From an uncultured Fuscovulum sp. (GTDB taxonomy: Bacteria > Pseudomonadota > Alphaproteobacteria > Rhodobacterales > Rhodobacteraceae), in the NCBI GenBank assembly GCA_964386345.1, contig CAYLSD010000019.1, positions 9,802-73,801 on the forward strand: a stretch of DNA of 64,000 bases, given 5' to 3'. Under the pieces are notes generated by a model. That model worked only from the letters and a program-made list of their open reading frames with translations, was not told where the DNA came from and did not search any database. Positions 43,335 to 63,364 of the stretch are shown here, piece by piece (the stretch's first letter is position 1; each line of letters starts with the position of its first letter). The position numbers and the translations under genes are program-made.

Positions 43335-45386
43335 TCAGATGTCCTTCATCAGCCGCAGCGCATCGTAGATCGCCGCATGGGTGTTGCGCGATTCCACCGC
43401 GTCGCCGATCCGGTAGAGGCGGAAGCCCTTCGGCCCGTCGCCCGCGGGTTGCGGCCTGCCGTCGATCAGCGCGTCGTAATCCACCGCGCCGAGGTTCTCG
43501 GACAGCGGCTTCAGCGCGAAGTAGAGATCGGCATTCGGCGCGGTGCCGTGGTTCACCACGATCTGGTCGTAGTGCTTTTCCTGCGCCAGATCGGCGATGT
43601 AGTCCGATCCGATCACGGCCTTCAGCCGGTTGCCGTCGCGCGCCACCGAGGTCAGCCGGTAGGTGACGGTGAAGGTGACGGATTTCCCTTGCAGGCTGCG
43701 CATATAGGGGACGAGGTTCATCCCCATCACCTCGGGCGCGAAGCTGCGGTCGGGGGTCATCACCTCGACCGTGGCGCCCGCGGCGGCCAGCGCATCGGCG
43801 GTCTGCATCGCGGTATGGTCGCCCGCATCGTCGTAAAGCAGCACATTCGCCCCCGGCTTCACGTCGCCCGACAGGATGTCCCAGGCCTGCACGCAGAGAT
43901 CCTCGCCCGAAGCCAGCCCCACGGGCTGCGGCAACCCGCCGGTGGCGACGATCACCACATCTGGGGAAAGTGACGTTATGTCAGAGGTTTCCGCCCAAGT
44001 ATTGAAGTGAAATGTCACGCCCTTGGCCGTGCATTGCTCCATCCGCCAGTCGACGATGCCGATCATCTCGGACCGCCGCTTCTGCTGCGCGGTCAGCAGC
44101 ACCTGCCCCCCGGCGCGCGGCCCGGCCTCGAAGACCGTTACCCTGTGCCCGCGCTCGGCAGCGACCCGCGCGGCCTCAAGCCCCGCAGGACCGGCGCCGA
44201 CGATCACGACATTCTTCGGTGCCGCAGCGGCGGGAATGTCATGCGGCATCGTCTCTTCCCGCCCCGTCGCCGGGTTGTGGATGCACAGCGCCATGCCGCC
44301 CTGGTAGATCCGGTCGAGGCAATAGGTCGCGCCGACGCAGGGGCGGATGTCATGCTCGCGTCCCTCCACGATCTTGCGCACCACATGCGGGTCGGCCATA
44401 TGCGCCCGCGTCATCCCCACCATGTCGACCAGCCCCGCCGAGACGGCATGGCGCGCCGTCGCCACATCGGGGATGCGGGCGGCGTGGAAGGTGGGCAGGC
44501 CGACCTCGGCCCTGATCCGCCCGGCAAGGTCCAGATGCGGGGCCGATCGCATGCCCTGCACCGGGATCACATCGGTCAGCGCGGCATCGGTGTGGATGCG
44601 GCCGCGGATGATGTTGACGAAATCGACCAGTCCCGAATCCTTGAACCGCCGCGCCATCTCGACGCCCTCCTCGGCGGGGATACCGCCGGGGCTGTCCTCG
44701 TCGGCGGTGTAGCGCAGGCCCAGGAGGACCTTCGGCCCCACCCGCTCGCGGCAGGCTTGCAGCACCTCGAAGGCGAAGCGCAGGCGGTTGTCGAGGCTGC
44801 TTCCGTCATAGGGGCCGCCCTCCAGCGCATTGGTCAGCGGGCTGATGAACTGGTCCATCAGATGGCCGTAGCATTCGAATTCGACGCCATCGACACCCGC
44901 CGCCGCCATCCGTTCGGCGGCATCGGCATAGTCCTTGACGATGCGCGAGATGTCCCAGTCCTCGATCACCTTGGGGAAGGCGCGGTGGCTGGGTTCGCGG
45001 ACCGGGCCGGGGGCGACCACGGGCAGCCAGTCGCCCTTGTCCCAGCGGGTGCGGCGGCCAAGGTGGGAAAGCTGGATCATCACCGCCGCGCCCGCCTCGT
45101 GGCAGTCGTCGGTCAGCCGCTTCATCCAGGGCACGATCTCGTCCTTCCAGACCAGCAGGTTGGAAAATACCGGCGGGCTGTCGCGGCTGACCGATGCGGA
45201 ACCGGCCGTCATCACCATGGCCACCCCGGCCTTCGCACGCTCCAGATGGTAAAGCCGGTAGCGGTCCTTCGGCATCCCGTCCTCGCCATAGGCGGGTTCG
45301 TGGCTGGTGGTCATGATGCGGTTGCGCAGGGTCAGGTGATGCAGCTGGTAGGGTTGCAGCAGCGGATCGTTCGAGGGTCTGGACAT
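43335..45386 (-). CDS. stcD: NADH:flavin oxidoreductase, N-methylproline demethylase (StcD/HpbA)-like
   Basis: NDPLLQPYQL..LTLRNRI, HEPAY.EDGMPK, SRDSPPVF, LGRRTRWDKGDWLP, CVGATYCLDRIYQGG, RNTHAAIYDALRL. Confidence 0.82.
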   Translation of the reverse strand: MSRPSNDPLLQPYQLHHLTLRNRIMTTSHEPAYGEDGMPKDRYRLYHLERAKAGVAMVMTAGSASVSRDSPPVFSNLLVWKDEIVPWMKRLTDDCHEAGAAVMIQLSHLGRRTRWDKGDWLPVVAPGPVREPSHRAFPKVIEDWDISRIVKDYADAAERMAAAGVDGVEFECYGHLMDQFISPLTNALEGGPYDGSSLDNRLRFAFEVLQACRERVGPKVLLGLRYTADEDSPGGIPAEEGVEMARRFKDSGLVDFVNIIRGRIHTDAALTDVIPVQGMRSAPHLDLAGRIRAEVGLPTFHAARIPDVATARHAVSAGLVDMVGMTRAHMADPHVVRKIVEGREHDIRPCVGATYCLDRIYQGGMALCIHNPATGREETMPHDIPAAAAPKNVVIVGAGPAGLEAARVAAERGHRVTVFEAGPRAGGQVLLTAQQKRRSEMIGIVDWRMEQCTAKGVTFHFNTWAETSDITSLSPDVVIVATGGLPQPVGLASGEDLCVQAWDILSGDVKPGANVLLYDDAGDHTAMQTADALAAAGATVEVMTPDRSFAPEVMGMNLVPYMRSLQGKSVTFTVTYRLTSVARDGNRLKAVIGSDYIADLAQEKHYDQIVVNHGTAPNADLYFALKPLSENLGAVDYDALIDGRPQPAGDGPKGFRLYRIGDAVESRNTHAAIYDALRLMKDI

Positions 45387-45448
45387 GGCAAGCGGCCTTT
45401 TCACGGGTGGCTGGCGGCATCGTCGGGCAGGGCGCGGATTTCGTCAAA

Positions 45449-45478
45449 CACAAAATCGACACTGGTGTCGATTTTGTG
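45449..45478. promoter_or_regulatory. Candidate TetR operator in divergent stcD/tetR promoter
   Basis: CACAAAATCGACAC-TG-GTGTCGATTTTGTG, perfect 14-bp arms. Confidence 0.75.
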
Positions 45479-45523
45479 GGCTGTCTGGTTGCGGCGGGCG
45501 GGCAGGGGGCTTACCCTTGCCGC

Positions 45524-46162
45524 ATGGAAAGCACGGCGGAAGAGGCGGAGACGAAGGATCGCGGCTGGCGCGGCTCGGCCGCGCTGTGGCTGGACGGGGC
45601 CCATGCGCTGTTGATCGAAGGCGGCGTGGAGGCGGTGAAGATCGGCCCGCTGGCCGCCCGGCTCGGCCTGTCGCGGACCTCGTTCTACTGGCATTTCGCC
45701 GACCGCGAGGCGCTTCTGGCCGCGCTGGTCGCCCGCTGGCGCGAGACGAACACGCCCGCGCTGGTGGCACGGATCGACCGGCCCGCGGCGACGGTGACCG
45801 AGGCGGTTCTGGCGCTTTTCGACGCCTGGGTGGATGCGGACATGTTCGATTCGGCGGCGGAATTCGCCATGCGGACCTGGGCGCTGACCGATCCCGTGGT
45901 GGCCGCCGCGCTGGCCGGAGAGGATGAGGCGCGGATCGCCGCGCTGACCGGCCTTTTCCTGCGCCACGGCTATGCGGCGGATGAGGCGGACACCCGGGCG
46001 CGTACGGTCTATCTGACCCAGGTCGGCTATATCGCGCTGCGGTCGGAAGAGGATTTCGCGGCGCGGATGGCGCGGATCCCCTCCTATGCGCTGGTCTTCA
46101 CCGGGGTTGCCCCTTCGGCGGCGGAGGTGGCGGCCTTCCGGGCGCGCCACGCCCTTACGTAA
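45524..46162 (+). CDS. TetR/AcrR family regulator
   Basis: GGVEAVKI..LA.RLGLSRTSFYWHF helix-turn-helix. Confidence 0.9.
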   Translation: MESTAEEAETKDRGWRGSAALWLDGAHALLIEGGVEAVKIGPLAARLGLSRTSFYWHFADREALLAALVARWRETNTPALVARIDRPAATVTEAVLALFDAWVDADMFDSAAEFAMRTWALTDPVVAAALAGEDEARIAALTGLFLRHGYAADEADTRARTVYLTQVGYIALRSEEDFAARMARIPSYALVFTGVAPSAAEVAAFRARHALT

Positions 46163-46571
46163 GACGCGCCAGCAGCCGGGCCAGAAGCGCGGCCTCCGCC
46201 TCGTCCAGCGGTTCCAGCGTCAGGGCGCTGATCTCCAGCGCCAGCGGCGCCAGCCGGGCGAACAGCGCCCGGCCTTCGGGTGTCAGCGCCACGATCCGCC
46301 GGCGGCGGTCGGCCGGGTCCGGCGTGGCGGCGACAAGCCCCTGCCGCACCAGCCGGTCGACCACGCCCTTGACCGTGACCGCATCCATCGCGGTTTCCCG
46401 GCCGAGCGCGTTCTGCGACTGCGGCCCCAGTTCGGCCAGCCGGGCCAGCAGGGCGAATTGCGTGGTGGTCACGTCCGGGATGCCGCGGGCAAAGATCGCC
46501 AGATGCCGCTGCGTCACCCGGCGCAGCAGAAAGCCGATCTGCTCGTCCAGCACATAGCCCGTATGGTCCAT
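46155..46571 (-). CDS. MarR family regulator (NicR-like), divergent from the hydroxylase operon
   Basis: EQIGFLLRR..QRH, SQNALGRETAMD..TVKGVVDRL, DPADRRR...LTPEG. Confidence 0.9.
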   Translation of the reverse strand: MDHTGYVLDEQIGFLLRRVTQRHLAIFARGIPDVTTTQFALLARLAELGPQSQNALGRETAMDAVTVKGVVDRLVRQGLVAATPDPADRRRRIVALTPEGRALFARLAPLALEISALTLEPLDEAEAALLARLLARLT

Positions 46572-46592
46572 GCGCCCGAATAGACCCTACGC
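46559..46592. repeat. Repeat family A doublet overlapping the marR start codon
   Basis: CCGTATGG-T-CCATGCGC + CCGAATAG-A-CCCTACGC; 29/34 identical to 23822-23855. Confidence 0.7.
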
Positions 46593-46647
46593 TTTCCGTC
46601 CGCGCAAGGGACGGCTGTTGACAGCCGGGGCCGAGGCTTGGCACCTT

Positions 46648-46661
46648 GTTCGTATACGAAC
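46648..46661. promoter_or_regulatory. Candidate MarR operator
   Basis: Perfect palindrome GTTCGTATACGAAC 15 bp before the hydroxylase ATG; second palindrome GGCTGT-TG-ACAGCC (46613-46626) contains TTGACA. Confidence 0.6.
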
Positions 46662-46676
46662 GACAGGGCTAAGCGG

Positions 46677-47495
46677 ATGGATTACCTTCGCCCCGACAGC
46701 CTTTCCCAGGCGCTGGCCGCAGTTGCGGGCGGGGCGCGGGTGCTGGCGGGCGGGACGGATCTCTACCCCGGGGCGGGGCCGCGGCTGAAAGGGCCGGTGG
46801 TGGATCTTGCCGCCCTGCCGGGGATGGCGGGGATAAAGGCGGGGCCGGATGGCCTGCGGATCGGCGCCTGCACCACCTGGACCGCGATTGCCGAGGCAGA
46901 CCTGCCCCCCGCCGCGCGGGCGCTGCAACAGGCGGCGCTTCAGGTCGGCGGGCGGCAGGTGCAGAACGCGGGCACCATCGCCGGGAATATCTGCAACGCC
47001 TCGCCCGCCGCCGACGGCGTGCCGCCGCTTCTGGCCATAGGGGCCGGGGTGGAACTGGCCTCTGCCGCCGGGACGCGGCGGCTGGCGCTGGAGGATTTCC
47101 TGCAAGGCCCGCGCCGGGTGGAGCTACGGCCCGGCGAACTGGTCTCGGCGGTGCTGCTGCCGCGGGCGGGGCTGGCCGGGCGCTCGGCCTTCGCGAAACT
47201 GGGCGCGCGGGCGCATCTGGTGATCTCCATCGCCTCGGCCGCCGTGCGGCTGGAGGTCTCGGGCAGGCGGATCGAGGCGGCTGCGGTGGCGGTCGGCGCC
47301 TGCTCTCCGGTCCCGCGGCGGCTGCCTGCGGTGGAGGCGGCGCTTTGCGGCCCGATGCAGGGGGCCGCAGCCCGGGTCGATCCGGCGGCGGTGGCGGCGG
47401 CCCTGTCGCCCATCGGCGATGTGCGGGCGACGGCGGATTACCGGCTGCGGGCAGCGGCGGAACTGGTCCGCCGGGCGGTGGAGGACGCGCTGTGA
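46677..47495 (+). CDS. Molybdenum hydroxylase FAD subunit (XdhA/CoxM/NdhF-like)
   Basis: LAGGTDL, QVQNAGTIAGNICNASPAAD, DVRATADYR. Confidence 0.92.
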   Translation: MDYLRPDSLSQALAAVAGGARVLAGGTDLYPGAGPRLKGPVVDLAALPGMAGIKAGPDGLRIGACTTWTAIAEADLPPAARALQQAALQVGGRQVQNAGTIAGNICNASPAADGVPPLLAIGAGVELASAAGTRRLALEDFLQGPRRVELRPGELVSAVLLPRAGLAGRSAFAKLGARAHLVISIASAAVRLEVSGRRIEAAAVAVGACSPVPRRLPAVEAALCGPMQGAAARVDPAAVAAALSPIGDVRATADYRLRAAAELVRRAVEDAL

Positions 47496-50179
47496 TCCGG
47501 TTCCGGCTGAACGGCGAGGAGGTCGCGGCGGAGGCCCCGCCCACCGAACGGTTGAGCCTTACCCTTCGGGAAAGGCTGGGGAAAACCGGCACCAAGGTCG
47601 GCTGCGACGCGGGCGATTGCGGCGCCTGCACGGTGCTGGTGGACGGCTGGGCCACCTGCGCCTGCCTGACCCCGGCGGCGCGGGTCGAGGGCCGCGAGGT
47701 CACCACGGTTGAGGCGGAAACCCCCATCCTTGGCCGCCTGCGCGCCGCCTTCCTGGCCGAGGGCGCGGCGCAATGCGGCATCTGCACGCCGGGGATGCTG
47801 ATGGCGGCGGCCGAGCTTCTGGCGCATACACCCCGGCCGGACGAGGCCATGGTGCGGCAGGCCCTTGGGGGCGTCCTCTGCCGCTGCACCGGCTATGCGC
47901 GGATCGTCGCGGCGGTGGTCTCGGCGGGCCGGCCTGCGGCGGCGCATCCCGCCGCACCCGCCGCAGGGCAGGCGGTCGGCGCGGCCATGCCGCGGCTGGA
48001 CGGGGCGGCGAAGGTGGCGGGCGATCTGTTCGGCGACGATGTGGTGCCCCCCGGCGCGCTGGTGGTACGGGCCGTCCGCTCGCCGCATCCCCATGCCGCC
48101 TTCCGCTTCGGCGACCTGGCCGCCTATGCCGCCCGCCCGGGCGTGGCCGGGGTCTTCACCGCCGGGGACATTCCCGGCCGCAACGCCTTTTCCGTCATCC
48201 CGCCCTTCGCCGACCAGCCCGCCATCGCCACCTCTCCGGCCCGGTTCCGCGGCGAATGCGTGGCGCTGGTGGCGTTCGAGCCCGAGGCGGATTCCGGCCT
48301 GGCCGATTTCCCGGTGGACTGGCAGCCCTTGCCCGCGCTGGACAGCCCGGAGGCGGCCGAGGCCCCCGGCGCGGCGCTTGTCCACCCGGGCCGCCCCGGC
48401 AACCTGCTGATCGAGGGCAGGGTGAGGCGCGGCGACGTGGCGGCGGCGCTGGCCGCCTCGGCCCATGTGGTGGAGGGCAGCTTCACCACCGCCTTCGTCG
48501 AGCACGCCTATATCGAACCCGAGGCAGGCGCCGCATGGCTTGAGGGCGACAGGCTGGTCATCCGCGCCTGCACCCAGGCCCCCGGCATGGACCGCGAGGA
48601 AACCGCCGCGATCCTCGGCCTGCCGCTGGACAGGCTGCGCATCATCCCCTCTGCCGTCGGCGGCGGTTTCGGCTCGAAGCTGGATGTCTCCTTGCAGCCG
48701 CTGATCGGGCTGGTCGCCCTGCGCACAGGCCGCCCGGCGCGGATGACTTATTCGCGCCCCGAAAGCATGGCCTCCACCACCAAGCGCCACCCGGCCGGGA
48801 TGCAGGGCCGGATCGGTTGCGACGCCCGGGGCCGGATCACCGGCATGGAGTTCGAGGGCAGCTTCGACACCGGCGCCTATTCCAGCTGGGGCCCGACGGT
48901 GGCGAACCGGGTGCCGGTGCATGTCTCCGGCCCCTATCTGACGCCCGCGATCCATGCCCGGGCGCGGGCGGTGCACACCAACGGCCCGGTCTCCGGCGCC
49001 TTCCGCGGCTTCGGCGTGCCGCAGGCGGCGCTGTGGCAGGAAACGCTTTACGACCGGCTGGCGGAGAAGGCCGGGATCGACCGGCTGGAGTTCCGTATCC
49101 TGAACGCGCTGCGCGACGGGGATGTCTCGCCCACCGGCAACAGCCTGCAGGCGGTGGGGATCGCGCCGTGCCTTGAAGCGCTGCGGCCCGCATGGATGCG
49201 CGCGCTGGACTGGGCGGCTTCGGCCAGGGGCCGCGGCATCGGCGTCGCCTCCTGCTGGTATGGCTGCGGCAATACCGCCTTGCCCAACCCTTCCACCATC
49301 CGCATCGGCATCACCCGCGGGGGAGAGGCCGTATTGCATCAGGGCGCGACCGATATCGGGCAGGGATCGAACACCGTCATCCCGCAGATCGCCGCCGATG
49401 CCCTTGGCGTGCCGGTCCATGCCCTGCGGCTGGTCGGCCCCGACACGGCGCTGACGCCGGATGCGGGCAAGACCTCGGCCTCCCGCCAGACCTATGTCAC
49501 CGGCCGGGCGGCGCAGAAGGCGGCGGGCAGTTTGCGGGCGGCGATCCTGCGTATGGCCAATGCGGGCGAAGGGTCCATACTGGCACTGTCCCCGGGCCGG
49601 ATCACCGTGACCGAAGGGACCATACGGCGCGAGATCGAGCTTGAGGCGATGCCCCCCGACAGCCGCGGCTATGCGCTGTCGGCCGAGGAAAGCTACGACC
49701 CGCCGACCCGGCCGCTGGATGCCGACGGGCAGGGCGTGCCCTATGCCGTCTATGGCTACGGCGCGCAGATGGTGGAACTGGAGGTGGACCCGGCCCTCGG
49801 CACCGTCCGCCTGCACCGGATCACCGCGGCGCATGACCTCGGCCGGGTGATCAACCCGCTGCTCGCCCGCGGCCAGATCGAGGGCGGCATCGCCCAGGGA
49901 CTCGGCATGGCGCTGATGGAGGAATACCTGCCTGGCCGCACCGACAACCTGCACGACTACCTGATCCCGACCACCGGCGACATGCCGGCCATCGACCCGA
50001 TCCTGATCGAGGTGCCGGACCCCGAAGGCCCTTTCGGCGCCAAGGGCCTCGGCGAACACGTCCTGATCCCCACCGCCCCGGCGATCCTGAACGCCATCCG
50101 CCACGCTACCGGAGCCGCGATCACCCGCACCCCCGCGCTGCCCCACCGCATCCTCGCGGCGATGGAGGGCAGGGAATGA
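47492..50179 (+). CDS. Molybdenum hydroxylase, fused 2x[2Fe-2S] + molybdopterin subunit (nicotinate/xanthine dehydrogenase family)
   Basis: KVGCDAGDCGAC, QCGICTPG, LCRCTGY, VGGGFGSK, GAFRGFG, AKGLGE; GTGA overlap. Confidence 0.93.
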   Translation: MIRFRLNGEEVAAEAPPTERLSLTLRERLGKTGTKVGCDAGDCGACTVLVDGWATCACLTPAARVEGREVTTVEAETPILGRLRAAFLAEGAAQCGICTPGMLMAAAELLAHTPRPDEAMVRQALGGVLCRCTGYARIVAAVVSAGRPAAAHPAAPAAGQAVGAAMPRLDGAAKVAGDLFGDDVVPPGALVVRAVRSPHPHAAFRFGDLAAYAARPGVAGVFTAGDIPGRNAFSVIPPFADQPAIATSPARFRGECVALVAFEPEADSGLADFPVDWQPLPALDSPEAAEAPGAALVHPGRPGNLLIEGRVRRGDVAAALAASAHVVEGSFTTAFVEHAYIEPEAGAAWLEGDRLVIRACTQAPGMDREETAAILGLPLDRLRIIPSAVGGGFGSKLDVSLQPLIGLVALRTGRPARMTYSRPESMASTTKRHPAGMQGRIGCDARGRITGMEFEGSFDTGAYSSWGPTVANRVPVHVSGPYLTPAIHARARAVHTNGPVSGAFRGFGVPQAALWQETLYDRLAEKAGIDRLEFRILNALRDGDVSPTGNSLQAVGIAPCLEALRPAWMRALDWAASARGRGIGVASCWYGCGNTALPNPSTIRIGITRGGEAVLHQGATDIGQGSNTVIPQIAADALGVPVHALRLVGPDTALTPDAGKTSASRQTYVTGRAAQKAAGSLRAAILRMANAGEGSILALSPGRITVTEGTIRREIELEAMPPDSRGYALSAEESYDPPTRPLDADGQGVPYAVYGYGAQMVELEVDPALGTVRLHRITAAHDLGRVINPLLARGQIEGGIAQGLGMALMEEYLPGRTDNLHDYLIPTTGDMPAIDPILIEVPDPEGPFGAKGLGEHVLIPTAPAILNAIRHATGAAITRTPALPHRILAAMEGRE
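49549..49627. repeat. Repeat family A units inside the Mo subunit gene
   Basis: Units at 49549 and 49566 (17-bp register) and 49611 (CCGAAGGG-A-CCATACGG). Confidence 0.6.
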
Positions 50180-50190
50180 AAGGTTCTTTT

Positions 50191-50240
50191 CCCCTTCATC
50201 TTGGTCCAAATACTCCGGGGGCGCGGGGGCTGGCCCCCGC
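50191..50240 (+). repeat. Intergenic repeat family B, copy 2
   Basis: CCCCTTCATCTTGGTCCAAATACTCCGGGGGCGCGGGGGCTGGCCCCCGC. Confidence 0.8.
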
Positions 50241-50267
50241 TCCGACCTTGGCCGCAGGACTTGCCCC

Positions 50268-51704
50268 ATGACCGAAGCCCCCGAGAAGATCCGCTGCGAT
50301 GCCTGCCCGGTGATGTGCTACATCGCCCCCGGCCAGACCGGCGCCTGCGACCGTTATGCCAATGAGGCAGGCCGGATCGTGCGGACCGATCCGGTGGTGA
50401 TGCTGTCCCATGCCGTCGGGACCGGCGGGCGCGTGGTGCCCTTCGCGGCGCGGGATTGGGATGGCAGCCCGGTGCCCGCGGATGCTTTCGTCACCGGCAT
50501 CGGCGCGGGAACCACCTACCCGGACTACAAGCCCGCGCCCTTCATCGTGTCGTCCCGTATGGGCGATACGGACATGGTGACCGTGGTGACCGAGGCGATC
50601 TTTTCCTATTGCGGGGTGAAGGTGAAGATCGACACCGACCGCTTCCTCGGCCCCGAGGGGGCGGTGGTCCGGGTGACGGGCGAGGCCGTCGGCCATGTCA
50701 CCACCGCCGAATACGGCAGCCAGATGCTGTCCCTCGGCGGCGTCCATCACCTGACCGGCGGCTCGAAGGCCGGGGGCCGCGTCACCTGCGCCGCGCTGCT
50801 GAGCCTGTGCAACGGCGAGGCGGTGGAGATGGAGATCGAGGGCGGCTCGGCCGTGACCGTGCAGGCCGGACGGCCTCCGGTTGTGGATGGCGTGCAGGAG
50901 CGGCGGATGCGGGTCGGCTGCGGCTCGGCCACCATCGGCATGTTCGCGGTGCAATGGCAGGGGCTGGTGGACGAGGTGGTGGTGGTGGACGACCACATCA
51001 CCGGCGTCGTTTCGGAACATCAGGCCGGGAAGGTGCTGGACTGGCAGCCGACCGGGATCAGGATCAAGGGGCATCGGTCGACCCCGGGGCGGTATTTCCG
51101 GGTGTCGGAGCCCGGACAGGGCTGGGGCGGCACGCGGCTGACCGATCCGCTGGAGATCCTGGGCGACTGGCAGGAGAAGAAGGGGGCAAGGCCGGGGCTG
51201 CGGCTGCTGATGGTGTCCACCACCGGCGAGGAATACGCCTATTACGTGCTGGACCGGGACCTGCGCCCGGTGCCGCAGGAGTTGCCGCAGAACCTGAAGA
51301 AGACCGTGCAACTGATTGACGAGAATTGCGAACCCTCGCTTTGCACCGTGCTGTTCATGGGCGGGGCCGGGGGATCGCTGCGGGCGGGCGTCACCCGGAA
51401 TCCGGTGCGGTTGACAAGGTCCGTGCAGGGCGGCGTGACCCGGCTGACCTGCGGCGGGGCGGAAACCTTCGTCTGGCCCGGCGGCGGCATCACCTTCATG
51501 GTCGACGTGACCCGGCTGCCGAAGGGCGCCTTCGGTTATGTGCCGACGCCCGCGCTGGTGGCTCCGCTGGAATTCACCCTGCCGCGCGAGGATTATCTGG
51601 CGATGGGCGGGCATGAGGCGGCGGTCCGGGACATCGGGCAGGTGATGGAGGAAGGCGGGGAATACCCGACTGCCGCGAGGATCGAACCGTGGGGCGGGCG
51701 GTGA
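50268..51704 (+). CDS. hnr: 6-hydroxynicotinate reductase-like Fe-S flavoprotein
   Basis: RCDACPVMC...GACDRY, GAGTTYPDYKPAPFIVS, FSYCGVKVKIDTDR, MRVGCGSATIG, GGAGGSLRAGVT, WPGGGITFMVD; downstream of Mo-hydroxylase. Confidence 0.8.
   Translation: MTEAPEKIRCDACPVMCYIAPGQTGACDRYANEAGRIVRTDPVVMLSHAVGTGGRVVPFAARDWDGSPVPADAFVTGIGAGTTYPDYKPAPFIVSSRMGDTDMVTVVTEAIFSYCGVKVKIDTDRFLGPEGAVVRVTGEAVGHVTTAEYGSQMLSLGGVHHLTGGSKAGGRVTCAALLSLCNGEAVEMEIEGGSAVTVQAGRPPVVDGVQERRMRVGCGSATIGMFAVQWQGLVDEVVVVDDHITGVVSEHQAGKVLDWQPTGIRIKGHRSTPGRYFRVSEPGQGWGGTRLTDPLEILGDWQEKKGARPGLRLLMVSTTGEEYAYYVLDRDLRPVPQELPQNLKKTVQLIDENCEPSLCTVLFMGGAGGSLRAGVTRNPVRLTRSVQGGVTRLTCGGAETFVWPGGGITFMVDVTRLPKGAFGYVPTPALVAPLEFTLPREDYLAMGGHEAAVRDIGQVMEEGGEYPTAARIEPWGGR
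50555..50571. repeat. Repeat family A single unit inside hnr
   Basis: CCGTATGG-G-CGATACGG, 15/16 match to consensus. Confidence 0.6.
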
Positions 51705-51793
51705 GCGGCGCGTTCCATATCGCGCAGCCGCGCATCCGCGCGCGGCTGCAAGGGCCCGTCTCGCCTCTGGCCGTTCCGGCCAACCGGCTCGGG

Positions 51794-51830
51794 GCCTCCG
51801 GCGGGGATATTGGCGGTTCTGGAAGAGGGG
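51794..51830 (-). repeat. Intergenic repeat family B, degenerate copy 3
   Basis: GCCTCCGGCGGGGATATTGGCGGTTCTGGAAGAGGGG resembles the reverse complement of copy 1; preceded by a 10-bp-stem hairpin at 51724-51749. Confidence 0.45.
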
Positions 51831-51832
51831 CG

Positions 51833-52663
51833 GTGGCGGCGCTTTTGCCGGACGGGCGGCTGCATCTGCAACACGGGCCGATCGACATAGTCGCGGAAGC
51901 CTGGGGAGAGGCCGTGGCCGTCCGCGAAGGATATGCCCGGGCGGCGGGGCGCTTCGCTTCCGTGCTTCAGGAACTGGCGGCGGAACTGCCTGCGTTGCGG
52001 GCTGAGGATGCGCCCTTGCGGGGAGCCATCGCGCAACGGATGGCCGCTGCCGTGGCCCCGTTCCGGCCCGCCTTCATCACGCCCATGGCCGCCGTGGCGG
52101 GTGCGGTGGCGGAGGAGGTGCTGGCGGCGCTGGTCGGGCCGGGGATCGCCCGCGCCTGTGTCAACAACGGCGGCGACATCGCGCTGTTCCTTGCGCCGGG
52201 GCAGCGGCTGTCCTGCGCGCTGGCGGCCTCGGGCGGTATGGACCATACCACCGTATGGGCCGAGGCGCCGGTGCGCGGCATCGCCACCTCGGGCTGGCGG
52301 GGGCGCAGTTTCTCTTTCGGTGTCGCCGATGCGGTCACGGTGCTGGCGCGGACCGCGGCGATGGCGGATGCGGCGGCGACGATGGTGGCGAATGCGGTGG
52401 ATCTGCCCGGCCACCCGGGCATCCGCCGGCGCCCGGCCTGCGAGATGCAGGCGGATACCGATCTGGGCGCGCGGCTGGTGACGGTGGCGGTTCCCGCTCT
52501 TTCGCCGGAAGACCGCGGCGCAGCGCTGGCGGCGGGGCTGGCGGCGGCCGAGGGCTTCCGGGCGCGCGGATTGATTGAAGCTGCCGCGATTTACCTGCAA
52601 GGTGAGCGGCGGGTGACCGGGGGCCTTGCCCTTTCCGCGCCGGCAAGGGGAGAAGATGACTGA
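51833..52663 (+). CDS. UPF0280 family protein (ApbE-like fold)
   Basis: LPDGRLHLQHGPID, FITPMAAVAGAVA, NNGGDIA, GIATSGWRGRSFS.GVADAVTV; start GTG 51833 (RBS) or 51701. Confidence 0.85.
   Translation: MAALLPDGRLHLQHGPIDIVAEAWGEAVAVREGYARAAGRFASVLQELAAELPALRAEDAPLRGAIAQRMAAAVAPFRPAFITPMAAVAGAVAEEVLAALVGPGIARACVNNGGDIALFLAPGQRLSCALAASGGMDHTTVWAEAPVRGIATSGWRGRSFSFGVADAVTVLARTAAMADAAATMVANAVDLPGHPGIRRRPACEMQADTDLGARLVTVAVPALSPEDRGAALAAGLAAAEGFRARGLIEAAAIYLQGERRVTGGLALSAPARGEDD
52234..52267. repeat. Repeat family A doublet inside the UPF0280 gene
   Basis: CGGTATGG-A-CCATACCA then at +17 CCGTATGG-G-CCGAGGCG. Confidence 0.6.
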
Positions 52664-53237
52664 TTTCACCGTCCGCAAGATCGTGACCCAGATCGAGGAA
52701 ATCCGCCATGAGGGCGGGCCCGCCGCCGTGCCGCCTCCGGTCCGCGGCGCGATCTATGCGATCTGCGCCAATCCCTTCGCCGGGCGCTACGAGCCGGATC
52801 TGCAACCCGCGATGGAGAGGCTGAAGCCCCTTGCGCTGGACCTGACCGACCGGCTGGTCGCCGCGCTTGGGGGCCGGAACGGCATCGACGCCTATGGCAA
52901 GGGTGCCATCGTCGGCGAGGCGGGGGAAAGCGAGCATGGCGCGATCTGGCATGTCTCGGGCGGCTACGGCATGCGCGAGCGGCTGGGGGAATGCCGTGCC
53001 ATCGTGCCGAGCGCGATGAAGGTCGGCGGCATGGGGGCGGCGCTGGACATCCCGCTTGGCCACCTGAACGCGGCCTATGTCCGGTCGCGCTTCGACGTGA
53101 TCACCGTCGCCTGCGCCGACGGGCCGCGCGCGGGCGAGGTGCTGTTCGCCCTGGCCATGGCGCGGGGCGGGCGGGTGCATTCCCGGATGGGCGGGCTGGA
53201 GATCCATCAGGTGAAGGGGGAGGACGGGCTGCGATGA
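52656..53237 (+). CDS. DUF1185 (amino acid synthesis family) protein
   Basis: VRKIVTQIEEI.HEGG, NPFAGRY, YGKGAIVG..GE.EH, DIPLGH...AYVRS, GGRVHSR. Confidence 0.82.
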   Translation: MTDFTVRKIVTQIEEIRHEGGPAAVPPPVRGAIYAICANPFAGRYEPDLQPAMERLKPLALDLTDRLVAALGGRNGIDAYGKGAIVGEAGESEHGAIWHVSGGYGMRERLGECRAIVPSAMKVGGMGAALDIPLGHLNAAYVRSRFDVITVACADGPRAGEVLFALAMARGGRVHSRMGGLEIHQVKGEDGLR

Positions 53238-54592
53238 TCCCGCGGGGCACGGCGACGGCGCTGATCCTGTGCCTGTTCCCCGGCGCCGCGCTGGCCTGCG
53301 CGCTGCCGCCCTCGGTCATCCTGGTCCTGCCGACCGGGCATTACATCACCGCCGCGGCGCTGACCGTCGCGCTGACGGCGCTGCTGGCCGCGATGGCGGG
53401 GCGGATGCCGGAGATGCGGGCGCATGTGCTGTGGGAAAGCCGCCGGGTCGTGCCTCAGGCGGCGACCTCATACCTTTCCTTCCTGATCTTCCTCGGCCTG
53501 GTGCTGACCGGTTTCCTTGGCCCGCGCGACCCGATGCACAACCTGATGACGCTGGTATTCTGGACCGGGGTCTGGATCGCGGTGCCGCTGGCCTCGGCCG
53601 TGTTCGGCAATATCTGGCGCTGGATCAACCCGTGGAGCGGCCCGGTGCGGATCGCCCGCACGCTGCTGGGGCGCAGGGGCGGCATCGGGTTGACCCGCCT
53701 TGGCCACTGGCCTGCCGTGCTGTTCTACCTTGGCTTCATCTGGTTCCAGATGATCTCGCTTTCCCCCGACGACCCCGCCGTTCTGGCGCAGGCGGCGCTG
53801 GTCTACTGGCTTGCCGTCTTCGCCCTTGCCGTGGCCGAGGGCGAGGACTGGCTGGAAAGGGGCGAGTTCCTGACCGTGCTTTTCGGCTTCGTCTCGAAGA
53901 TCGCGCCGCTTTGGGTAGAGACCGACGGGTCCCGCAGCCGGCAGATGGCGGGCTGGCCCGGGGCGCAGGTGCTGCGGATGCCGCCGCTGTCCCCGTCCGC
54001 CATGGTCTTCATCGCGCTGGCGCTGGCCGCGCTGACCTTCGAGGGGCTGAGCGAGACCTTCTTCTGGCAGGGTGTGATCGGGCAGAACCCGCTGGAGCCG
54101 ACGGGCCGCTCCGCCGTGGTCTGGCAGAACTCGGCCGGCATCCTTGCCACCTTCGCGCTGACGCTGGCGGCGCTGTGGCTGGGGATGCGGCTTGGCGGGT
54201 GGCTGTCCGGCGGGGCGTTCCGGGCCGACCGGGTGATGCTGTCCTTCCTTGCCATCGCCAGCGGCTACCATGCGGCGCATTACCTGGTGATGCTGCTGAC
54301 CGCCGGGCAATACACGCTGGCCGCGCTGAACGACCCGTTCTTCACCGGCGAAAGCTGGCTGGGGCTGCCGCCCTTCTACGTCTCCTTCGGTTTCCTGACC
54401 GATGCGCGGATCATGCCGCTGCTTTACGGCACGCAGTTCGCGGTGATCCTCGGGGCGCATCTGCTGGCCGTCGTCCTGTCCTTCCGGCTGGCCGGGCCGG
54501 TGCGGGCGGTGGCGCATCTGCCGCTGACGGTGCTGATGGTCGGCTATACGGTCCTGGGGCTGTGGCTTCTGTCCACCGCCCGGGTGGGGTGA
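53234..54592 (+). CDS. Uncharacterised polytopic membrane protein
   Basis: 452 aa, about 11 hydrophobic segments, YHAAHY and GAHLLAV; ATGA-coupled. Confidence 0.75.
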   Translation: MIPRGTATALILCLFPGAALACALPPSVILVLPTGHYITAAALTVALTALLAAMAGRMPEMRAHVLWESRRVVPQAATSYLSFLIFLGLVLTGFLGPRDPMHNLMTLVFWTGVWIAVPLASAVFGNIWRWINPWSGPVRIARTLLGRRGGIGLTRLGHWPAVLFYLGFIWFQMISLSPDDPAVLAQAALVYWLAVFALAVAEGEDWLERGEFLTVLFGFVSKIAPLWVETDGSRSRQMAGWPGAQVLRMPPLSPSAMVFIALALAALTFEGLSETFFWQGVIGQNPLEPTGRSAVVWQNSAGILATFALTLAALWLGMRLGGWLSGGAFRADRVMLSFLAIASGYHAAHYLVMLLTAGQYTLAALNDPFFTGESWLGLPPFYVSFGFLTDARIMPLLYGTQFAVILGAHLLAVVLSFRLAGPVRAVAHLPLTVLMVGYTVLGLWLLSTARVG

Positions 54593-54677
54593 AACGGGTG
54601 GACAGCGCCGCGCCGCGGCGACACATTCGACGAGAGGTCCCCGGCAGCGGGGCCAGCCAGCAAGGGGAGAGACCCAG

Positions 54678-55955
54678 ATGACCACGACTTCGCTTTTCAC
54701 GCCGTCCCGCCGCCGGGTTCTGCAGGGCATGGGGGCCGGTCTGGCCACGGCGGCAATCCCGGGGCATGTCTGGGGGCAGGCCGCGCCGCTGAAGATCGGG
54801 TTCCAGTTGCACCGCACCGGCATCGGCGCGGCCTATGGCCGCTGGTATGAGCGCACGACCACCGCCGCCGCCGCCGCGATCAACGCCGCGGGCGGGATCG
54901 GCGGGCGGCAGGTGGAGATCCTTTACGAGGACGATGCCACCGACCCCAAGCGCGGCGCCGAAGTGGTGGAAAAGCTGGCGGGCCCCTCGGGCTGCGACCT
55001 GATCATGGGGACGCTGTTTTCCCATGTCGTGATGGGCGCCGCGCCGCGGGCGGGGGAGTTGAAGATCCCCTATCTCGTCTGCTCCGAGGGCTATCACGTC
55101 GCCTCCGGCGCGCTGAACCGCTGGGTGCTGCAACCCGGCATCACCGATGTGCGGGCGCAGATCTCCACCATGGCGCCCTGGGTCGCCTCGACCCTTGGCA
55201 AGAAGGTGACGATGGTCTTCCCGGACTATGCCTTCGGCCACGACCACCGCGATTTCTTCACCAGTGCCATTGCCGCGCAGGGCGGCGAGGTGATCAGGCA
55301 GATCGCCATCCCGCCGACCGAAACCAGCTTCACCCGCTATTTCCCGCAGATCCCGGCCGAGACCGAGGTGCTGTATCACGTCATGGTCGGCCCCGCCGTC
55401 CTGACCTTCGTCAAGGAGCTGGGAGAGTTCTACGGCACCGGCGCGAAGCCCGCGCTCTTCGGCTTCATCGACTCGCTGGAGGCGGTGGATACGGCCTCGC
55501 CGGGGCTGGAGTTCCTTGAGGGCAGCCATTTCTGGGAAGGCCATTGCCGGGTGAAGCCCGCCGACGCGGGCGAGGCCGAGACCGCCTATCGCGCCGCGGT
55601 GGGGGTGGACGACAACGGCGCAAGCGTCAGCGACGCCAAGGATGTCTCGACCTATGCGCATATGTTCTCTTGCTGGGAGACGCTGCATTTCATCAAGCAG
55701 GCGGTAGAGGCTTCGGGCTATGCCGGCCCCGCCGACCGCCAGAAGCTGGTCGAGGCGATGGAGGCGGTGACCGACCTGCCCGAGGGGCCGGAACGCCCGC
55801 AGGGGCCGATGCGCTTCGACGGCAAGAAGCACCAGGCCTTCGGGGTGCAGAACATCTCGAAGGTCGAAGGCGGCAAGCTGGTGCGGGTGCACCAGACCAC
55901 GATCGAGGAAGGGCTTTACGAGAACGACACCGACTATACGGCGATGTCGTTCTAA
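54678..55955 (+). CDS. ABC substrate-binding protein, LivK/periplasmic binding protein type 1, Tat-exported
   Basis: SRRRVLQG twin-arginine signal, INAAGGIGGRQVEILYEDD, PDYAFG. Confidence 0.9.
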   Translation: MTTTSLFTPSRRRVLQGMGAGLATAAIPGHVWGQAAPLKIGFQLHRTGIGAAYGRWYERTTTAAAAAINAAGGIGGRQVEILYEDDATDPKRGAEVVEKLAGPSGCDLIMGTLFSHVVMGAAPRAGELKIPYLVCSEGYHVASGALNRWVLQPGITDVRAQISTMAPWVASTLGKKVTMVFPDYAFGHDHRDFFTSAIAAQGGEVIRQIAIPPTETSFTRYFPQIPAETEVLYHVMVGPAVLTFVKELGEFYGTGAKPALFGFIDSLEAVDTASPGLEFLEGSHFWEGHCRVKPADAGEAETAYRAAVGVDDNGASVSDAKDVSTYAHMFSCWETLHFIKQAVEASGYAGPADRQKLVEAMEAVTDLPEGPERPQGPMRFDGKKHQAFGVQNISKVEGGKLVRVHQTTIEEGLYENDTDYTAMSF

Positions 55956-55962
55956 GGGCCGC

Positions 55963-55980
55963 GGCGGGGGCGACCCCGCC
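55963..55980 (+). other. Intercistronic hairpin after the binding-protein gene
   Basis: GGCGGGG-GCGA-CCCCGCC, GNRA loop, typical mRNA-stabilising position. Confidence 0.5.
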
Positions 55981-55994
55981 CCACGCATCCCCGC

Positions 55995-56873
55995 ATGGCC
56001 TTCGGTCCCTTCCTGCTTCTCGCCCTGATGGAGGGCATGGTCACCGCCGCGGTGCTGTCGCTGGCGGCGGTGGGCCTGTCGCTGGTCTTCGGCGTCATGC
56101 GGGTGGTCAATGTCGCGCATGGCGAGTTCTTCATGCTGGGCGCGGTGATCGCCTGGTTCGTGGCGGGGCTGGTGCCCGGCCCGGCATGGATGGCCTTCCT
56201 TGCCGCGCTGGTGATCGCGCCGCTGATCGTCGGCGCGTTGGCGGCGGCGGTCGACGGGCTGGTGCTGAAGCGGCTGAACTACGACCCCGAGGCCACCATC
56301 GTCGCCACCATCGGCGTGATGTACATGCTGCAACAGGCGGCGCTGAGCTTTTACGGCCCCGACGCCCGCCCGGTGGCCGCCCCCTTCACCTGGCGCATCC
56401 AGCTGCCGTGGTTCGGCACCTCCGGCTACAAGTTCTTCGTCGTCCTTGCCGCCATCCTCGTCCTGCTGGCGGTCTGGCTGGTGATGACACGCACGAAGGC
56501 CGGGCTGGTGATGCGGGCGACGCAGGTGGACCGTGATGTCGCCCGCGCCTTCGGGATAAATGTCGACCGGGTCTACATGGGCACCTTCGCGCTTGGCGCG
56601 GGGCTGGCGGCGATGGGGGCGGTGCTCTACGTGCCGATCAGCCAGGCGCATTACCTGATGGGGCACGACCCGCTGCTTTTGTCCTTCATCGTGGTGATCA
56701 TCGGCGGCCTCGGCAGCTTGCGCGGCACGCTGGTCGCGGCGCTGGTGATCGGCCTGTCGGACGGGGTGATCAGCATGTTCTTCTCGCCCACGCTGGCGAA
56801 GATCCTCGCCACGCTGCTGGTCGCCATGGTGCTGGTGTTCCGCCCGCAGGGCCTGTTCGGGGCGAAGGCATGA
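55995..56873 (+). CDS. Branched-chain-type ABC permease (LivH-like)
   Basis: GLSLVFGVMRVVNVAHGEFFMLG, FIVVIIGGLGS, VFRPQGLFG. Confidence 0.92.
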   Translation: MAFGPFLLLALMEGMVTAAVLSLAAVGLSLVFGVMRVVNVAHGEFFMLGAVIAWFVAGLVPGPAWMAFLAALVIAPLIVGALAAAVDGLVLKRLNYDPEATIVATIGVMYMLQQAALSFYGPDARPVAAPFTWRIQLPWFGTSGYKFFVVLAAILVLLAVWLVMTRTKAGLVMRATQVDRDVARAFGINVDRVYMGTFALGAGLAAMGAVLYVPISQAHYLMGHDPLLLSFIVVIIGGLGSLRGTLVAALVIGLSDGVISMFFSPTLAKILATLLVAMVLVFRPQGLFGAKA

Positions 56874-57814
56874 GTCGCGGGGCGCGGACATGGGCGCTGC
56901 ATCTGGCCGTGCTGGCGGCGCTGCTGGCGGCGGGGCTGCTGCTGCCCGCCTATCATGCGACCAACCTTGCGCGCATCCTGGTGCTGGCCACCTTCGCCGC
57001 CGGATACAACCTTGCCTTCGGCTATACCGGGCTTCTGAGCCTTGGCCATGCGATGTTCTTCGCCGCCGGGATGTATGCCGCCGGGCTGCCCGCCTGGCAC
57101 TGGGGCTGGCCCGCCGCGCCCGCGCTGCTGGCCGGGGCGGCGGCGGGCGGGCTGATGGCGCTGGCCGTGGGCGCGCTGGCGCTGCGGACGGCGGGCGTCT
57201 CCTTCATGATCGTCACGCTGATGTTCGCGCAGGCCTTCGCGCTGACCATCCTTTATTTCAACACCTGGACCGGCGGGGACGAGGGCTTCGTGATCCCCGA
57301 CGCCTCGCGCCGCCTGTTCGGCGTCAGCCTCTCCGCCGACGTTCCGCGCTTCCTGACGGCATGGGGCCTGTTCGCCATTGGCCTGATCCTGTCGCTGGCG
57401 CTGGTCCGCTCGCGCTTCGGCCGGATCATGGTGGCGCTGCGCGAGAACGAGGAACGGGCGAGGATGCTGGGCATCAACCCCTTCGCCGCCAAGCTGAAGG
57501 TGCTGGCGGTCTCGGGCGCCTATTCCGGCGCGGCGGGGGCGGCCTATGCCATCCTGTTCGGCTATGCGGGCGGCACCTTCGCCGGCATCCAGTATTCCAT
57601 CCTGCCGATGCTCTACGTCCTTCTGGGCGGGGCGGGCACCGTTCTTGGCGCCGTCCTCGGCGCGGGGCTGATGTTCTACCTGACCGAACTGGCCTCTTCC
57701 GTCACCTCGGCCTGGCTGTTCCTGGTGGGGCTGGCGCTGGTGGTGCTGGTCCTCTTCGCGCCGAAGGGCATCCTCGGCTGGGTCCGGGCAAGGCTGTGGA
57801 GGGATCTGCCATGA
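56870..57814 (+). CDS. Branched-chain-type ABC permease (LivM-like)
   Basis: YNLAFGYTGLLSLGHAMFF, TGGDEG, ALRENEERA..LG, FAPKGILG. Confidence 0.92.
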   Translation: MSRGARTWALHLAVLAALLAAGLLLPAYHATNLARILVLATFAAGYNLAFGYTGLLSLGHAMFFAAGMYAAGLPAWHWGWPAAPALLAGAAAGGLMALAVGALALRTAGVSFMIVTLMFAQAFALTILYFNTWTGGDEGFVIPDASRRLFGVSLSADVPRFLTAWGLFAIGLILSLALVRSRFGRIMVALRENEERARMLGINPFAAKLKVLAVSGAYSGAAGAAYAILFGYAGGTFAGIQYSILPMLYVLLGGAGTVLGAVLGAGLMFYLTELASSVTSAWLFLVGLALVVLVLFAPKGILGWVRARLWRDLP

Positions 57815-58510
57815 GCCTTCTCTCCGCCCGCGGCCTGACCCGGCACTTCGGCGGCATCCATGCCGTCGACGGGGTGGATTTCGATCTGGAGGCCGGAGAG
57901 ATCCATGCCCTGATCGGCCCCAACGGCGCGGGCAAGACGACGCTGGTCTCGCTGCTTTCGGGCCGCATCGCGGCGCAGGCGGGCAGGATCACGCTGGCGG
58001 GAGAGGACATCACCCGCCTTCCCGCCCATGCCCGCGTCCGGCGCGGTCTGGCCTATACCTTCCAGATCACCAGCATCTTCCCGGGGCTTTCGGTCTTCGA
58101 CAATGTGGCGCTGGCGGTGCAGGGCGGCGCGGCCCCGGCCCGCGACCTGCCCGCCGCCGTCGGGGCCAGCCTCGCCCGGGTCGGCATGACGGGGATGGAG
58201 GCACAGGCCGCGGGGACCCTGTCCTACGGCCACCAGCGGCTGCTGGAACTGGCGATGGGGCTGGCGCTGGCCCCCCGCGTGCTGATCCTGGACGAGCCGA
58301 CGCAGGGCCTTGCGGCGGGCGAGATCGAGGGATTCAAGGCGCTGGTCCGCGGGCTGGTCCCCGAGGTCTCGGTCCTGCTGATCGAGCACAACATGGAGGT
58401 GGTGATGGACCTTGCCCACCGCATCACCGTGATGAACTCCGGCCGGGTGCTGGCGCGCGGAACGCCTGCGGAAGTCCGGGCCGATGCGGCGGTGCAGGAG
58501 GCCTATCTCG

Positions 58511-58518
<8 letters not shown>
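57811..58518 (+). CDS. ABC ATP-binding protein (LivG-like)
   Basis: GPNGAGKTT, LSYGHQRLLE, LDEPTQG, IEHNM. Confidence 0.93.
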
Positions 58519-59206
<688 letters not shown>

Positions 59207-59207
59207 G

Positions 59208-61229: not shown

Positions 61230-61265
61230 CGGACCCCCGTGGAGTATTTCCGTCAAGAGGAAGGG
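61221..61265 (-). repeat. Intergenic repeat family B, copy 4 (overlaps subunit A stop)
   Basis: Reverse complement CCCTTCCTCTTGACGGAAATACTCCACGGGGGTCCGCTAGCCCCC aligns with copies 1 and 2. Confidence 0.65.
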
Positions 61266-61272
61266 CAGGGCG

Positions 61273-62949: not shown

Positions 62950-62971
62950 CGATCTTCGCGCGAAGCCCGGC

Positions 62972-63364
62972 CTAGCCCTTTGCCGCCCGCAACCGCGGAT
63001 GGATGGCATTGGTCTTCCAGCTGAGCGCGGGATCGTTCTCCACCACATCCAGCGACAGGGCGAAATGCGGCTCGGCCAGAAGGGCGGCGAAATGCGTCTC
63101 CGCCGCCGTCATCACCGCCGCGCCGAGGCGTTTCTTCTCTTCCGCCGTCCGGCCTGCGCCGATCCGCAGCAGCAGGGCGGCGAAGGCGTTTTCCGGCAAG
63201 ATGTCGGCCACGGCGTAATGCGGGCAGGGCAGGGCGCGGACGCGCACCGCGCCTTCCTCGAAGAGGCCGGTCGCCAGCAGCGCCTCGCGCAGCCGCAGGC
63301 AAAGGCCGGGCAGGTCGCCCGCGGTTTCCAGATTGGCCGAATATTCGATGGTCAGATGCGGCAT
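62972..63364 (-). CDS. hpaF: 5-carboxymethyl-2-hydroxymuconate isomerase family (Pro-1 tautomerase)
   Basis: MPHLTIEYSANL, GAVRVRA, IGAGRT.E.K, N.IH.RL. Confidence 0.85.
   Translation of the reverse strand: MPHLTIEYSANLETAGDLPGLCLRLREALLATGLFEEGAVRVRALPCPHYAVADILPENAFAALLLRIGAGRTAEEKKRLGAAVMTAAETHFAALLAEPHFALSLDVVENDPALSWKTNAIHPRLRAAKG

Follow-up and report, generated by a model that had tools for sequence, protein, structure and literature searches.

Flavin transferases of the ApbE type can act in the cytoplasm, since the signal-less ApbE of Klebsiella pneumoniae flavinylates a soluble fumarate reductase (PMC12052999). The conserved residues of the ApbE catalytic centre are, in the V. cholerae enzyme, Ser241, His257 and Asp285 (PMC12052999). 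The gene pair analyzed here may make use of a relative of this enzyme. It consists of hnr, which codes for a homologue of 6-hydroxynicotinate reductase (Hnr), and of the gene behind it, which codes for a protein of the UPF0280 family; it lies in a stretch of 64,000 nucleotides (the window, meaning the whole of this stretch) on contig CAYLSD010000019.1 of an uncultured Fuscovulum sp. We find that UPF0280 very probably serves as an accessory factor dedicated to Hnr. One mechanism stands out as the likeliest, with a probability that we put at about 0.4: acting as an ApbE-like transferase, UPF0280 would take flavin mononucleotide (FMN) from flavin adenine dinucleotide (FAD) and attach it to a serine or threonine residue of Hnr.

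Nicotinate clusters resembling the one in the window have been described from Eubacterium barkeri, Azorhizobium caulinodans and Bradyrhizobiaceae (PMC3511419). They share with it a molybdenum hydroxylase, hnr and an ATP-binding cassette (ABC) transporter, and the Hnr homologue of Bradyrhizobiaceae, from the same type of cluster, is 42% identical to that of E. barkeri (PMC3511419). The published clusters hold two extra genes which probably correspond to UPF0280 and to AA_synth, the gene behind UPF0280, and we found no published role for either. The Hnr of E. barkeri reportedly carries a covalently bound flavin.

The UPF0280 family is a large one, with 2,314 cluster representatives at E <= 0.001, and the databases already place it within the ApbE superfamily: JGI uses the name "ApbE superfamily uncharacterized protein (UPF0280 family)" and Pfam 38.1 the entry PF27030, "AbpE_bact". 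We take DUF375, COG2122 and UPF0280 to be names for one family, which the protein of the window shares. In its COG2122 branch, MA1715 of Methanosarcina acetivorans has been called a sulfur-trafficking protein (PMC12068725), and according to a proposal by Rauch and Perona the branch takes part in forming persulfide (as cited in PMC5764234). Our literature searches found no paper which links UPF0280 and Hnr. An earlier sequence-only reading of the window had described the two as an enzyme and its maturase and expected that this would assign a function to UPF0280. That expectation needs qualifying, because the COG2122 branch (MA1715, DvMF_0044) already has a genetic role, in the making of homocysteine from sulfide, and because of the database entries just mentioned.

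Hnr and UPF0280 as genomic partners

The open reading frames (ORFs) of the pair are as follows.

50268..51704, plus strand: hnr, 6-hydroxynicotinate reductase homologue, protein P0001, 478 amino acids
51689..52663, plus strand: UPF0280 / PF27030 "AbpE_bact" ORF in the version of the sequence-only reading, protein P0002, GTG start at 51689, 324 amino acids
51833..52663, plus strand: UPF0280, most likely coding region, GTG start, 276 amino acids

NCBI, JGI and plasmid records call the close relatives of P0001 6-hydroxynicotinate reductase or hnr. On NCBIfam NF003322 (PRK04334/UPF0280), for which the cut-off is 290 bits, P0002 reaches 354.8 bits, and its relatives carry a precomputed PF27030 assignment. 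The alignment with its homologues, like the NF003322 profile, sets in at residue 47-50 of the ORF. The first 46 residues lack a counterpart in these homologues and are disordered in the model, and a Shine-Dalgarno-like GGAAGAGGGG at 51821-51830 stands ahead of the GTG at 51833. The gene therefore probably starts at this GTG and codes for 276 amino acids. It still follows hnr directly, as the sequence-only reading stated, and with this start there is a gap of 128 nucleotides after the hnr stop codon and not an overlap. Residue numbers of UPF0280 motifs in this text refer to the 324-residue ORF.

An even sample of 301 Pseudomonadota genomes was searched for Hnr and for NF003322. Hnr is present in 19 of the genomes, representing 10 genera, and NF003322 in exactly those 19; in all of them (19/19) UPF0280 is found just downstream of hnr on the same strand. 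The same arrangement was seen in a further set, the 80 closest alphaproteobacterial loci fetched with the Hnr alignment: UPF0280 is directly downstream of hnr in 77/77 loci with room for it, the other three being at a contig edge. UPF0280 is also present in 26/26 plasmid records having hnr, and these plasmid matches come from Proteobacteria only. We report counts instead of a P value, as kin are not independent. The co-occurrence proposed as a check in the sequence-only reading is thus borne out: the pairing is more than chance, and the two genes are strict genomic partners. Across the same loci UPF0280 diverges much faster than its partner, with 42-76% identity against 68-88% for Hnr.

Directly upstream of five among nine divergent UPF0280 representatives there is an Hnr gene or else a gene of Hnr size without Pfam family, and one representative is on a frameshifted contig; the others are weighed below. 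P0299, seemingly distant, was rejected for lying on a frameshifted contig, and P0005 was rejected as an artefact of internal duplication. Fusions of Hnr and UPF0280 were not used either. They appear as 27 matches to longer proteins, many with both parts in one ORF, which we ascribe to assembly frameshifts: in the best pair (P0274/P0281) the linker is in different frames, and contig L280 has its molybdenum hydroxylase gene in four frames.

Plasmid pBPS33-1 of Hydrogenophaga sp. BPS33 (L127, NZ_CP044550.1) has four UPF0280 places by tblastn. In the 18.8-kb stretch read, one copy stands beside IS1071, within a block that is repeated and has genes for Rieske oxygenase, VanB reductase and TTT-binding protein but not hnr. 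Transposon amplification seems to have carried this copy along as a remnant, and the copies of this array were set aside as uninformative about function. In genome G024 (L022/L023/L040) the match to Hnr is broken into two pieces that overlap (residues 8-233 and 192-472) next to an intact UPF0280, which suggests a frameshift or a split hnr gene.

Fold, putative active site and location of UPF0280

The AlphaFold2 model of UPF0280, made from 111 sequences, has a predicted local distance difference test (pLDDT) score of 87.7, with values above 95 for residues 47-320. When the model is compared with solved structures by VIA-align, the closest is DVU1097 (PDB 2o34, deposited as Pfam DUF375), with Z 20.4 at 24% identity. 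Every solved ApbE/Ftp/FmnB protein (4xdr, 1vrm, 4xgv, 7esa, 6nxi, 5mgy, 3pnd) follows at Z 14.0-15.9, with 206-220 residues aligned at a root-mean-square deviation of 3.4-3.7 Å, and the next fold, that of urate oxidase, has Z 7.8. Foldseek gives a probability of about 1.0 for ApbE. As far as the model goes, then, UPF0280 is an ApbE-fold protein over the whole domain, in agreement with what the sequence-only reading had expected of a structure prediction.

The motifs which that reading had named as common to ApbE, NNGGDIA and GIATSG, hold up in a profile comparison. In UPF0280 they are found as VNNGGDIA at residues 158-165 (NNGGD 159-163) and GIATSG at 197-202 (ATSG 199-202), followed by ADAAAT at 226-231. 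Against 24 canonical ApbEs hhalign returns a probability of 95.3% and E 2.4e-8 over 98 columns, and it pairs G162-D163, T200-S201-G202 and A226-D227...T231 with the GG[DE], ATSG and ADxxxT motifs of ApbE. These positions are conserved in 108-111 of the 111 UPF0280 sequences. Ser201 and Asp227 occur in 111/111 and Thr231 in 110/111, and their counterparts by alignment in the ApbE of the same genome are S233, D277 and T281. UPF0280 thus keeps counterparts of S241 and D285 of the V. cholerae enzyme, together with the Thr of ADxxxT and the GGD. We take Ser201, Asp227, Thr231 and GGD to bind Mg2+ and pyrophosphate.

With DVU1097 and the COG2122 proteins P0002 shares, besides the structural match, the UPF0280/PRK04334 model group. 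Both are UPF0280-type proteins that are obligate companions of one ferredoxin-linked two-electron enzyme of reductase type and unknown fold. The partners differ, however: DvMF_0044 and MA1715 serve DUF39 (COG1900) sulfurtransferases in homocysteine synthesis, while the partner here is Hnr. DUF39 (PF01837) was not found in the genome of the window, which is 100% complete, nor near UPF0280 in any locus read, and no member of the Hnr alignment matches PF01837. The Hnr-linked subfamily moreover has ATSG where DVU1097 has CGSS, and it has no conserved Cys. For these reasons (no conserved Cys, ATSG for CGSS, no DUF39 gene) a sulfur-carrier role of UPF0280 is unlikely here.

Neither P0001 nor P0002 has an N-terminal hydrophobic or twin-arginine translocation (Tat) type signal, as judged by inspection and a check of hydropathy and Tat motif, which agrees with the sequence-only reading. 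UPF0280 is accordingly predicted to be cytoplasmic, and like the K. pneumoniae ApbE it is encoded beside a single soluble reductase. The genome also has two canonical ApbEs, one of them encoded behind nqrF, which score 186 and 212 bits on PF02424. Both carry Tat-type export signals (SRRLFL and SRRRFL) and are therefore not placed to serve a cytoplasmic Hnr.

How Hnr may obtain its flavin

P0001 begins with a CxxCxxxCx9C motif (C10, C13, C17, C27) and has further conserved cysteines at 115, 174, 218, 354 and 359, nine in all. Pfam and NCBIfam give no family match except a weak one to the GCV_T_C barrel. The AlphaFold2 model of Hnr has a pLDDT of 74, with residues 110-460 mostly above 80. Compared with the PDB, it finds nothing below E 1e-3 by Foldseek and a best Z of 4.0 among 48,161 chains by VIA-align, and it shows no domain of the Rossmann, TIM-barrel, flavodoxin or FMN_bind kind. 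The enzyme family may have an undescribed fold. The absence of a known flavin fold from the model fits a covalently tethered flavin, although it does not show one. A phmmer alignment to IMPDH (residues 98-224, including GCGSA; E 0.03) had pointed to a TIM barrel. As the model has no such barrel and no PDB match above Z 4.0, the alignment is treated as a local coincidence of motifs. The GAGTTYPDYKPAPF block of Hnr is invariant and falls in a stretch which the model cannot place.

The mechanism we favour, with the probability given above, hypothesizes that the signal-less UPF0280 works in the cytoplasm for Hnr only. It would bind FAD through the pyrophosphate and Mg2+, using GGD, ATSG (Ser201) and ADxxxT (Asp227, Thr231), and would pass FMN on to a side-chain hydroxyl of apo-Hnr. 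This would yield the covalent flavin reported for the E. barkeri Hnr, an Fe-S reductase of ferredoxin type without recognisable flavin-binding fold. We infer the binding of FAD, the transfer of FMN and the target. The case for FMN transfer is made by the retained fold with its Ser/Asp/Thr core, by the location of UPF0280 in the cytoplasm while the canonical ApbEs are exported, and by the existence of cytoplasmic ApbEs for soluble reductases. It leans also on the covalent flavin which the E. barkeri enzyme is said to have.

As attachment site the sequence-only reading had pointed to VGCGSATIG, which is indeed present in Hnr (residues 216-224), and had likened its GSAT to the flavinylation motif. 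This part of the proposal does not stand. The canonical ApbE target motif, D-x-x-[ST]-G-A-[ST], has G and S in the opposite order, and there is no Asp at -6 of GSAT. Thr222 of GSAT is Ala in 4/52 homologues (L079, L080, L097 and L121, from Chelativorans, a Rhizobiaceae metagenome-assembled genome, Aminobacter and Pseudaminobacter) and Ser in 1/52, all of them with an adjoining UPF0280, and it is Ala also in the P0274/P0281 lineage. Since relatives with Ala keep UPF0280, Thr222 is not an obligatory site, and this counts against the proposal in its original form. The target would then be another residue. Ser220, Thr82/Thr83 (in the GAGTTYPDYKPAPF block) and about fifteen other Ser and Thr are invariant in the Hnr alignment and are possible candidates for the FMN target.

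Several further observations weigh against flavinylation by UPF0280. On the side of the enzyme, P0002 stays below the PF02424 gathering threshold of 25.6 bits, scoring 13.1 (E 0.069). The catalytic His loop of ApbE (H257 in V. cholerae; the His, H249 of the first sequence, is invariant in the 24 ApbEs) falls in a gap of the UPF0280 profile, and no His is conserved between UPF0280 residues 203 and 226. In place of the loop there is a shorter, family-specific and nearly invariant segment, G-W-R-G-R-S-x-S-x-G-x-A-D. As the His loop is absent, some other group would need to act as base. This could be the RGRSxSxGxAD segment, His59 or His62 of the N-terminal LHLQHGPID motif (both about 80% conserved), or a residue of Hnr.

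On the side of the substrate, Hnr has no FMN_bind domain and, unlike known ApbE targets, no D-x-x-[ST]-G-A-[ST]. P0001 lacks even [ST]GA[ST], which occurs in only 4/52 Hnr homologues and there at three different positions, two at the same place. A flavin linkage of the 8-alpha or 6-S type would be autocatalytic. Cys218 and several His and Tyr residues of Hnr (H161, H243, H251, Y84, Y114, Y149, Y276), all invariant, could carry such a bond, for which no transferase would be needed.

The distribution and the literature also contain points of this kind. The loci examined belong to Pseudomonadota-like lineages, and Hnr homologues containing Fer4 occur also in Bacillota, Thermodesulfobacteriota and archaea. 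Among the nine divergent UPF0280 representatives, two are flanked by AA_synth on both sides, on short contigs that show no hnr, and one stands alone. The same order, AA_synth-UPF0280-AA_synth, is found in the metagenome loci L126, L142 and L279. Behind it in L126 comes a Rieske/VanA-type oxygenase, and the 9.9 kb that were read contain no hnr. L142 (the one true match among 120 for the AT-rich DDHITG codon pattern in metagenomes) continues as AA_synth-UPF0280-AA_synth-ndhF-ndhSLM-hnr, and because of this hnr further along, such a sandwich can still belong to an hnr operon. Finally, the only relatives studied genetically, MA1715 and DvMF_0044, are tied to sulfide assimilation with DUF39 and not to flavin: the DvMF_0044 gene of Desulfovibrio vulgaris Miyazaki F is required for homocysteine synthesis and has a cofitness of r = 0.98 to the DUF39 gene (PMC5764234). 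The same study judged that the homology of COG2122 does not reach into the part of ApbE which binds flavin (PMC5764234).

Of the enzyme-maturase pair, then, the ApbE fold, the cytoplasmic location, the strict partnership with Hnr and the conserved Ser, Asp and Thr stand, whereas the proposed site, the target motif and the catalytic His loop do not support it.

The rival which survives best, though we consider it rather unlikely, keeps UPF0280 as dedicated partner of Hnr and takes the chemistry away from it. UPF0280 would help in assembly as a chaperone, or would be a subunit that is only loosely bound, holding a nucleotide or flavin or stabilising apo-Hnr during insertion of the Fe-S clusters and the flavin, and any covalent bond would form autocatalytically, for instance at Cys218 or at an invariant His or Tyr. 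The genomic coupling supports it as well as it supports FMN transfer. The lost catalytic His, the missing ApbE target motif in Hnr with its invariant Cys, His and Tyr residues, and the fast divergence of UPF0280, which is often seen for accessory factors, all agree with it. The near-invariance of S201, D227, T231 and GGD in 111 sequences, on the other hand, argues for retained chemistry over a scaffold, and the E. barkeri Hnr is said to be one polypeptide.

It is a good deal less probable that UPF0280 is a small-molecule enzyme of the pathway, possibly working with AA_synth, for example by binding or tautomerising a pyridone or tetrahydro-oxonicotinate ring in the way other T-fold proteins bind planar heterocycles. 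Such a role would agree with the arrangement of the genes. At window positions 52656-52663 the ATG of AA_synth overlaps the stop codon of UPF0280 (ATGACTGA), from which we take the two genes to be translationally coupled; AA_synth follows UPF0280 in most related loci, and in the three sandwich loci it stands on both sides. The T-fold enzymes (urate oxidase, DHNA, PTPS, QueF-like) are also the next structural neighbours, at Z 5-8. UPF0280 nevertheless tracks Hnr and not AA_synth, which is present in 44/301 genomes, 26 of these without UPF0280, and on this distribution AA_synth was rejected as the real partner. Hnr and UPF0280 occur with no AA_synth nearby in G206, L078, L081 and L100, and the motifs retained are the Ser and the Asp/Thr core of ApbE, not a T-fold substrate site.

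That UPF0280 is a COG2122-type sulfur trafficker for the Fe-S enzyme Hnr, or supports persulfide or Fe-S formation, is very improbable: the structural closeness to DVU1097, the cofitness with DUF39, the description of MA1715 and the nine conserved Cys of Hnr speak for it, but identity to DVU1097 is just 24%, the CGSS motif and a DUF39 gene are missing as described, and no column reaches 20% Cys among the 111 Hnr-linked UPF0280 sequences, so that UPF0280 cannot be a persulfide carrier.

If UPF0280 does flavinylate Hnr, a widespread "UPF" family obtains a biochemical function and the origin of the covalent flavin of 6-hydroxynicotinate reductase is explained. ApbE-type flavinylation would then reach a new class of cytoplasmic targets, recognised at a new site and modified by an active site that has no His. 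A practical rule for producing Hnr in other hosts would be to co-express UPF0280, and there would be a concrete hypothesis for the need of COG2122 in archaeal and Desulfovibrio homocysteine synthesis. A wider formulation, which we regard as speculative and unlikely, extends flavinylation to UPF0280/COG2122 as a whole. These proteins would be cytoplasmic descendants of ApbE which, after translation, attach a flavin or some other group derived from a nucleotide to ferredoxin-dependent two-electron reductases without canonical flavin fold, by a His-independent ApbE mechanism and at a new target site. The targets would be Hnr and, in methanogens and sulfate reducers, the DUF39/COG1900 aspartate-semialdehyde sulfurtransferase. 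If true, this would account for the covalent flavin of Hnr and equally for the unexplained need of COG2122 in making homocysteine. Should flavinylation be wrong altogether, UPF0280 still ranks with the clearest examples of a gene that is an obligate accessory to a single enzyme.

The nicotinate operon of the window

The hnr-UPF0280 pair lies within a nicotinate operon of a Rhodobacter/Tabrizicola-like alphaproteobacterium. The GC content of the window is about 69%, and the closest relatives of its genes come from Tabrizicola, Rhodobacter and Neotabrizicola. The operon-like run on the plus strand consists of TetR, the FAD subunit, the subunit with 2Fe-2S cluster and molybdenum cofactor (MoCo), hnr, UPF0280, AA_synth/DUF1185, a membrane protein, an ABC importer and the caprolactamase/hydantoinase A/B pair. 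The features around hnr and UPF0280 are:

45407-46162, plus strand: TetR regulator, heads the operon
46638..50179, plus strand: nicotinate-dehydrogenase-type molybdenum hydroxylase, upstream of hnr, from Pfam and NCBIfam matches
46638-47495, plus strand: FAD subunit of the molybdenum hydroxylase
47345-50179 (ORF), plus strand: fused 2Fe-2S and MoCo subunit of the molybdenum hydroxylase
52656..53237, plus strand: AA_synth / DUF1185 (PF06684)
about 53240-54592, plus strand: membrane protein without assigned family, lying between AA_synth and the ABC importer and read in the frame of ORF 52991-54592
downstream of the membrane protein, plus strand: branched-chain-type ABC importer
59127-61229, plus strand: caprolactamase/hydantoinase A, at the operon end
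61632-62975, plus strand: caprolactamase/hydantoinase B, at the operon end

The order of molybdenum hydroxylase and hnr is kept in related loci. The fused 2Fe-2S and MoCo subunit probably starts later than 47345. The membrane protein has no Pfam or NCBIfam match; the frame of ORF 52991 has a GC content at third codon positions (GC3) of 0.86 and codes for nine hydrophobic segments. A 470-residue ORF at 53269-54681 was rejected as a wrong-frame artefact, with a GC3 of 0.51 and no transmembrane segments, and the genuine gene is in the frame of ORF 52991.

Unlike the published nicotinate clusters, the operon has the caprolactamase/hydantoinase A/B pair downstream, and no enamidase-type amidohydrolase was found in it (window 46155-62975). 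An Amidohydro_1 gene is present in several related loci (L123, L125, L126). Beyond the TetR gene, on the minus strand at 43335-45404, there is a gene for a fusion protein of 689 amino acids that joins an Old Yellow Enzyme (OYE) type FMN domain with a pyridine-nucleotide-disulphide oxidoreductase domain.

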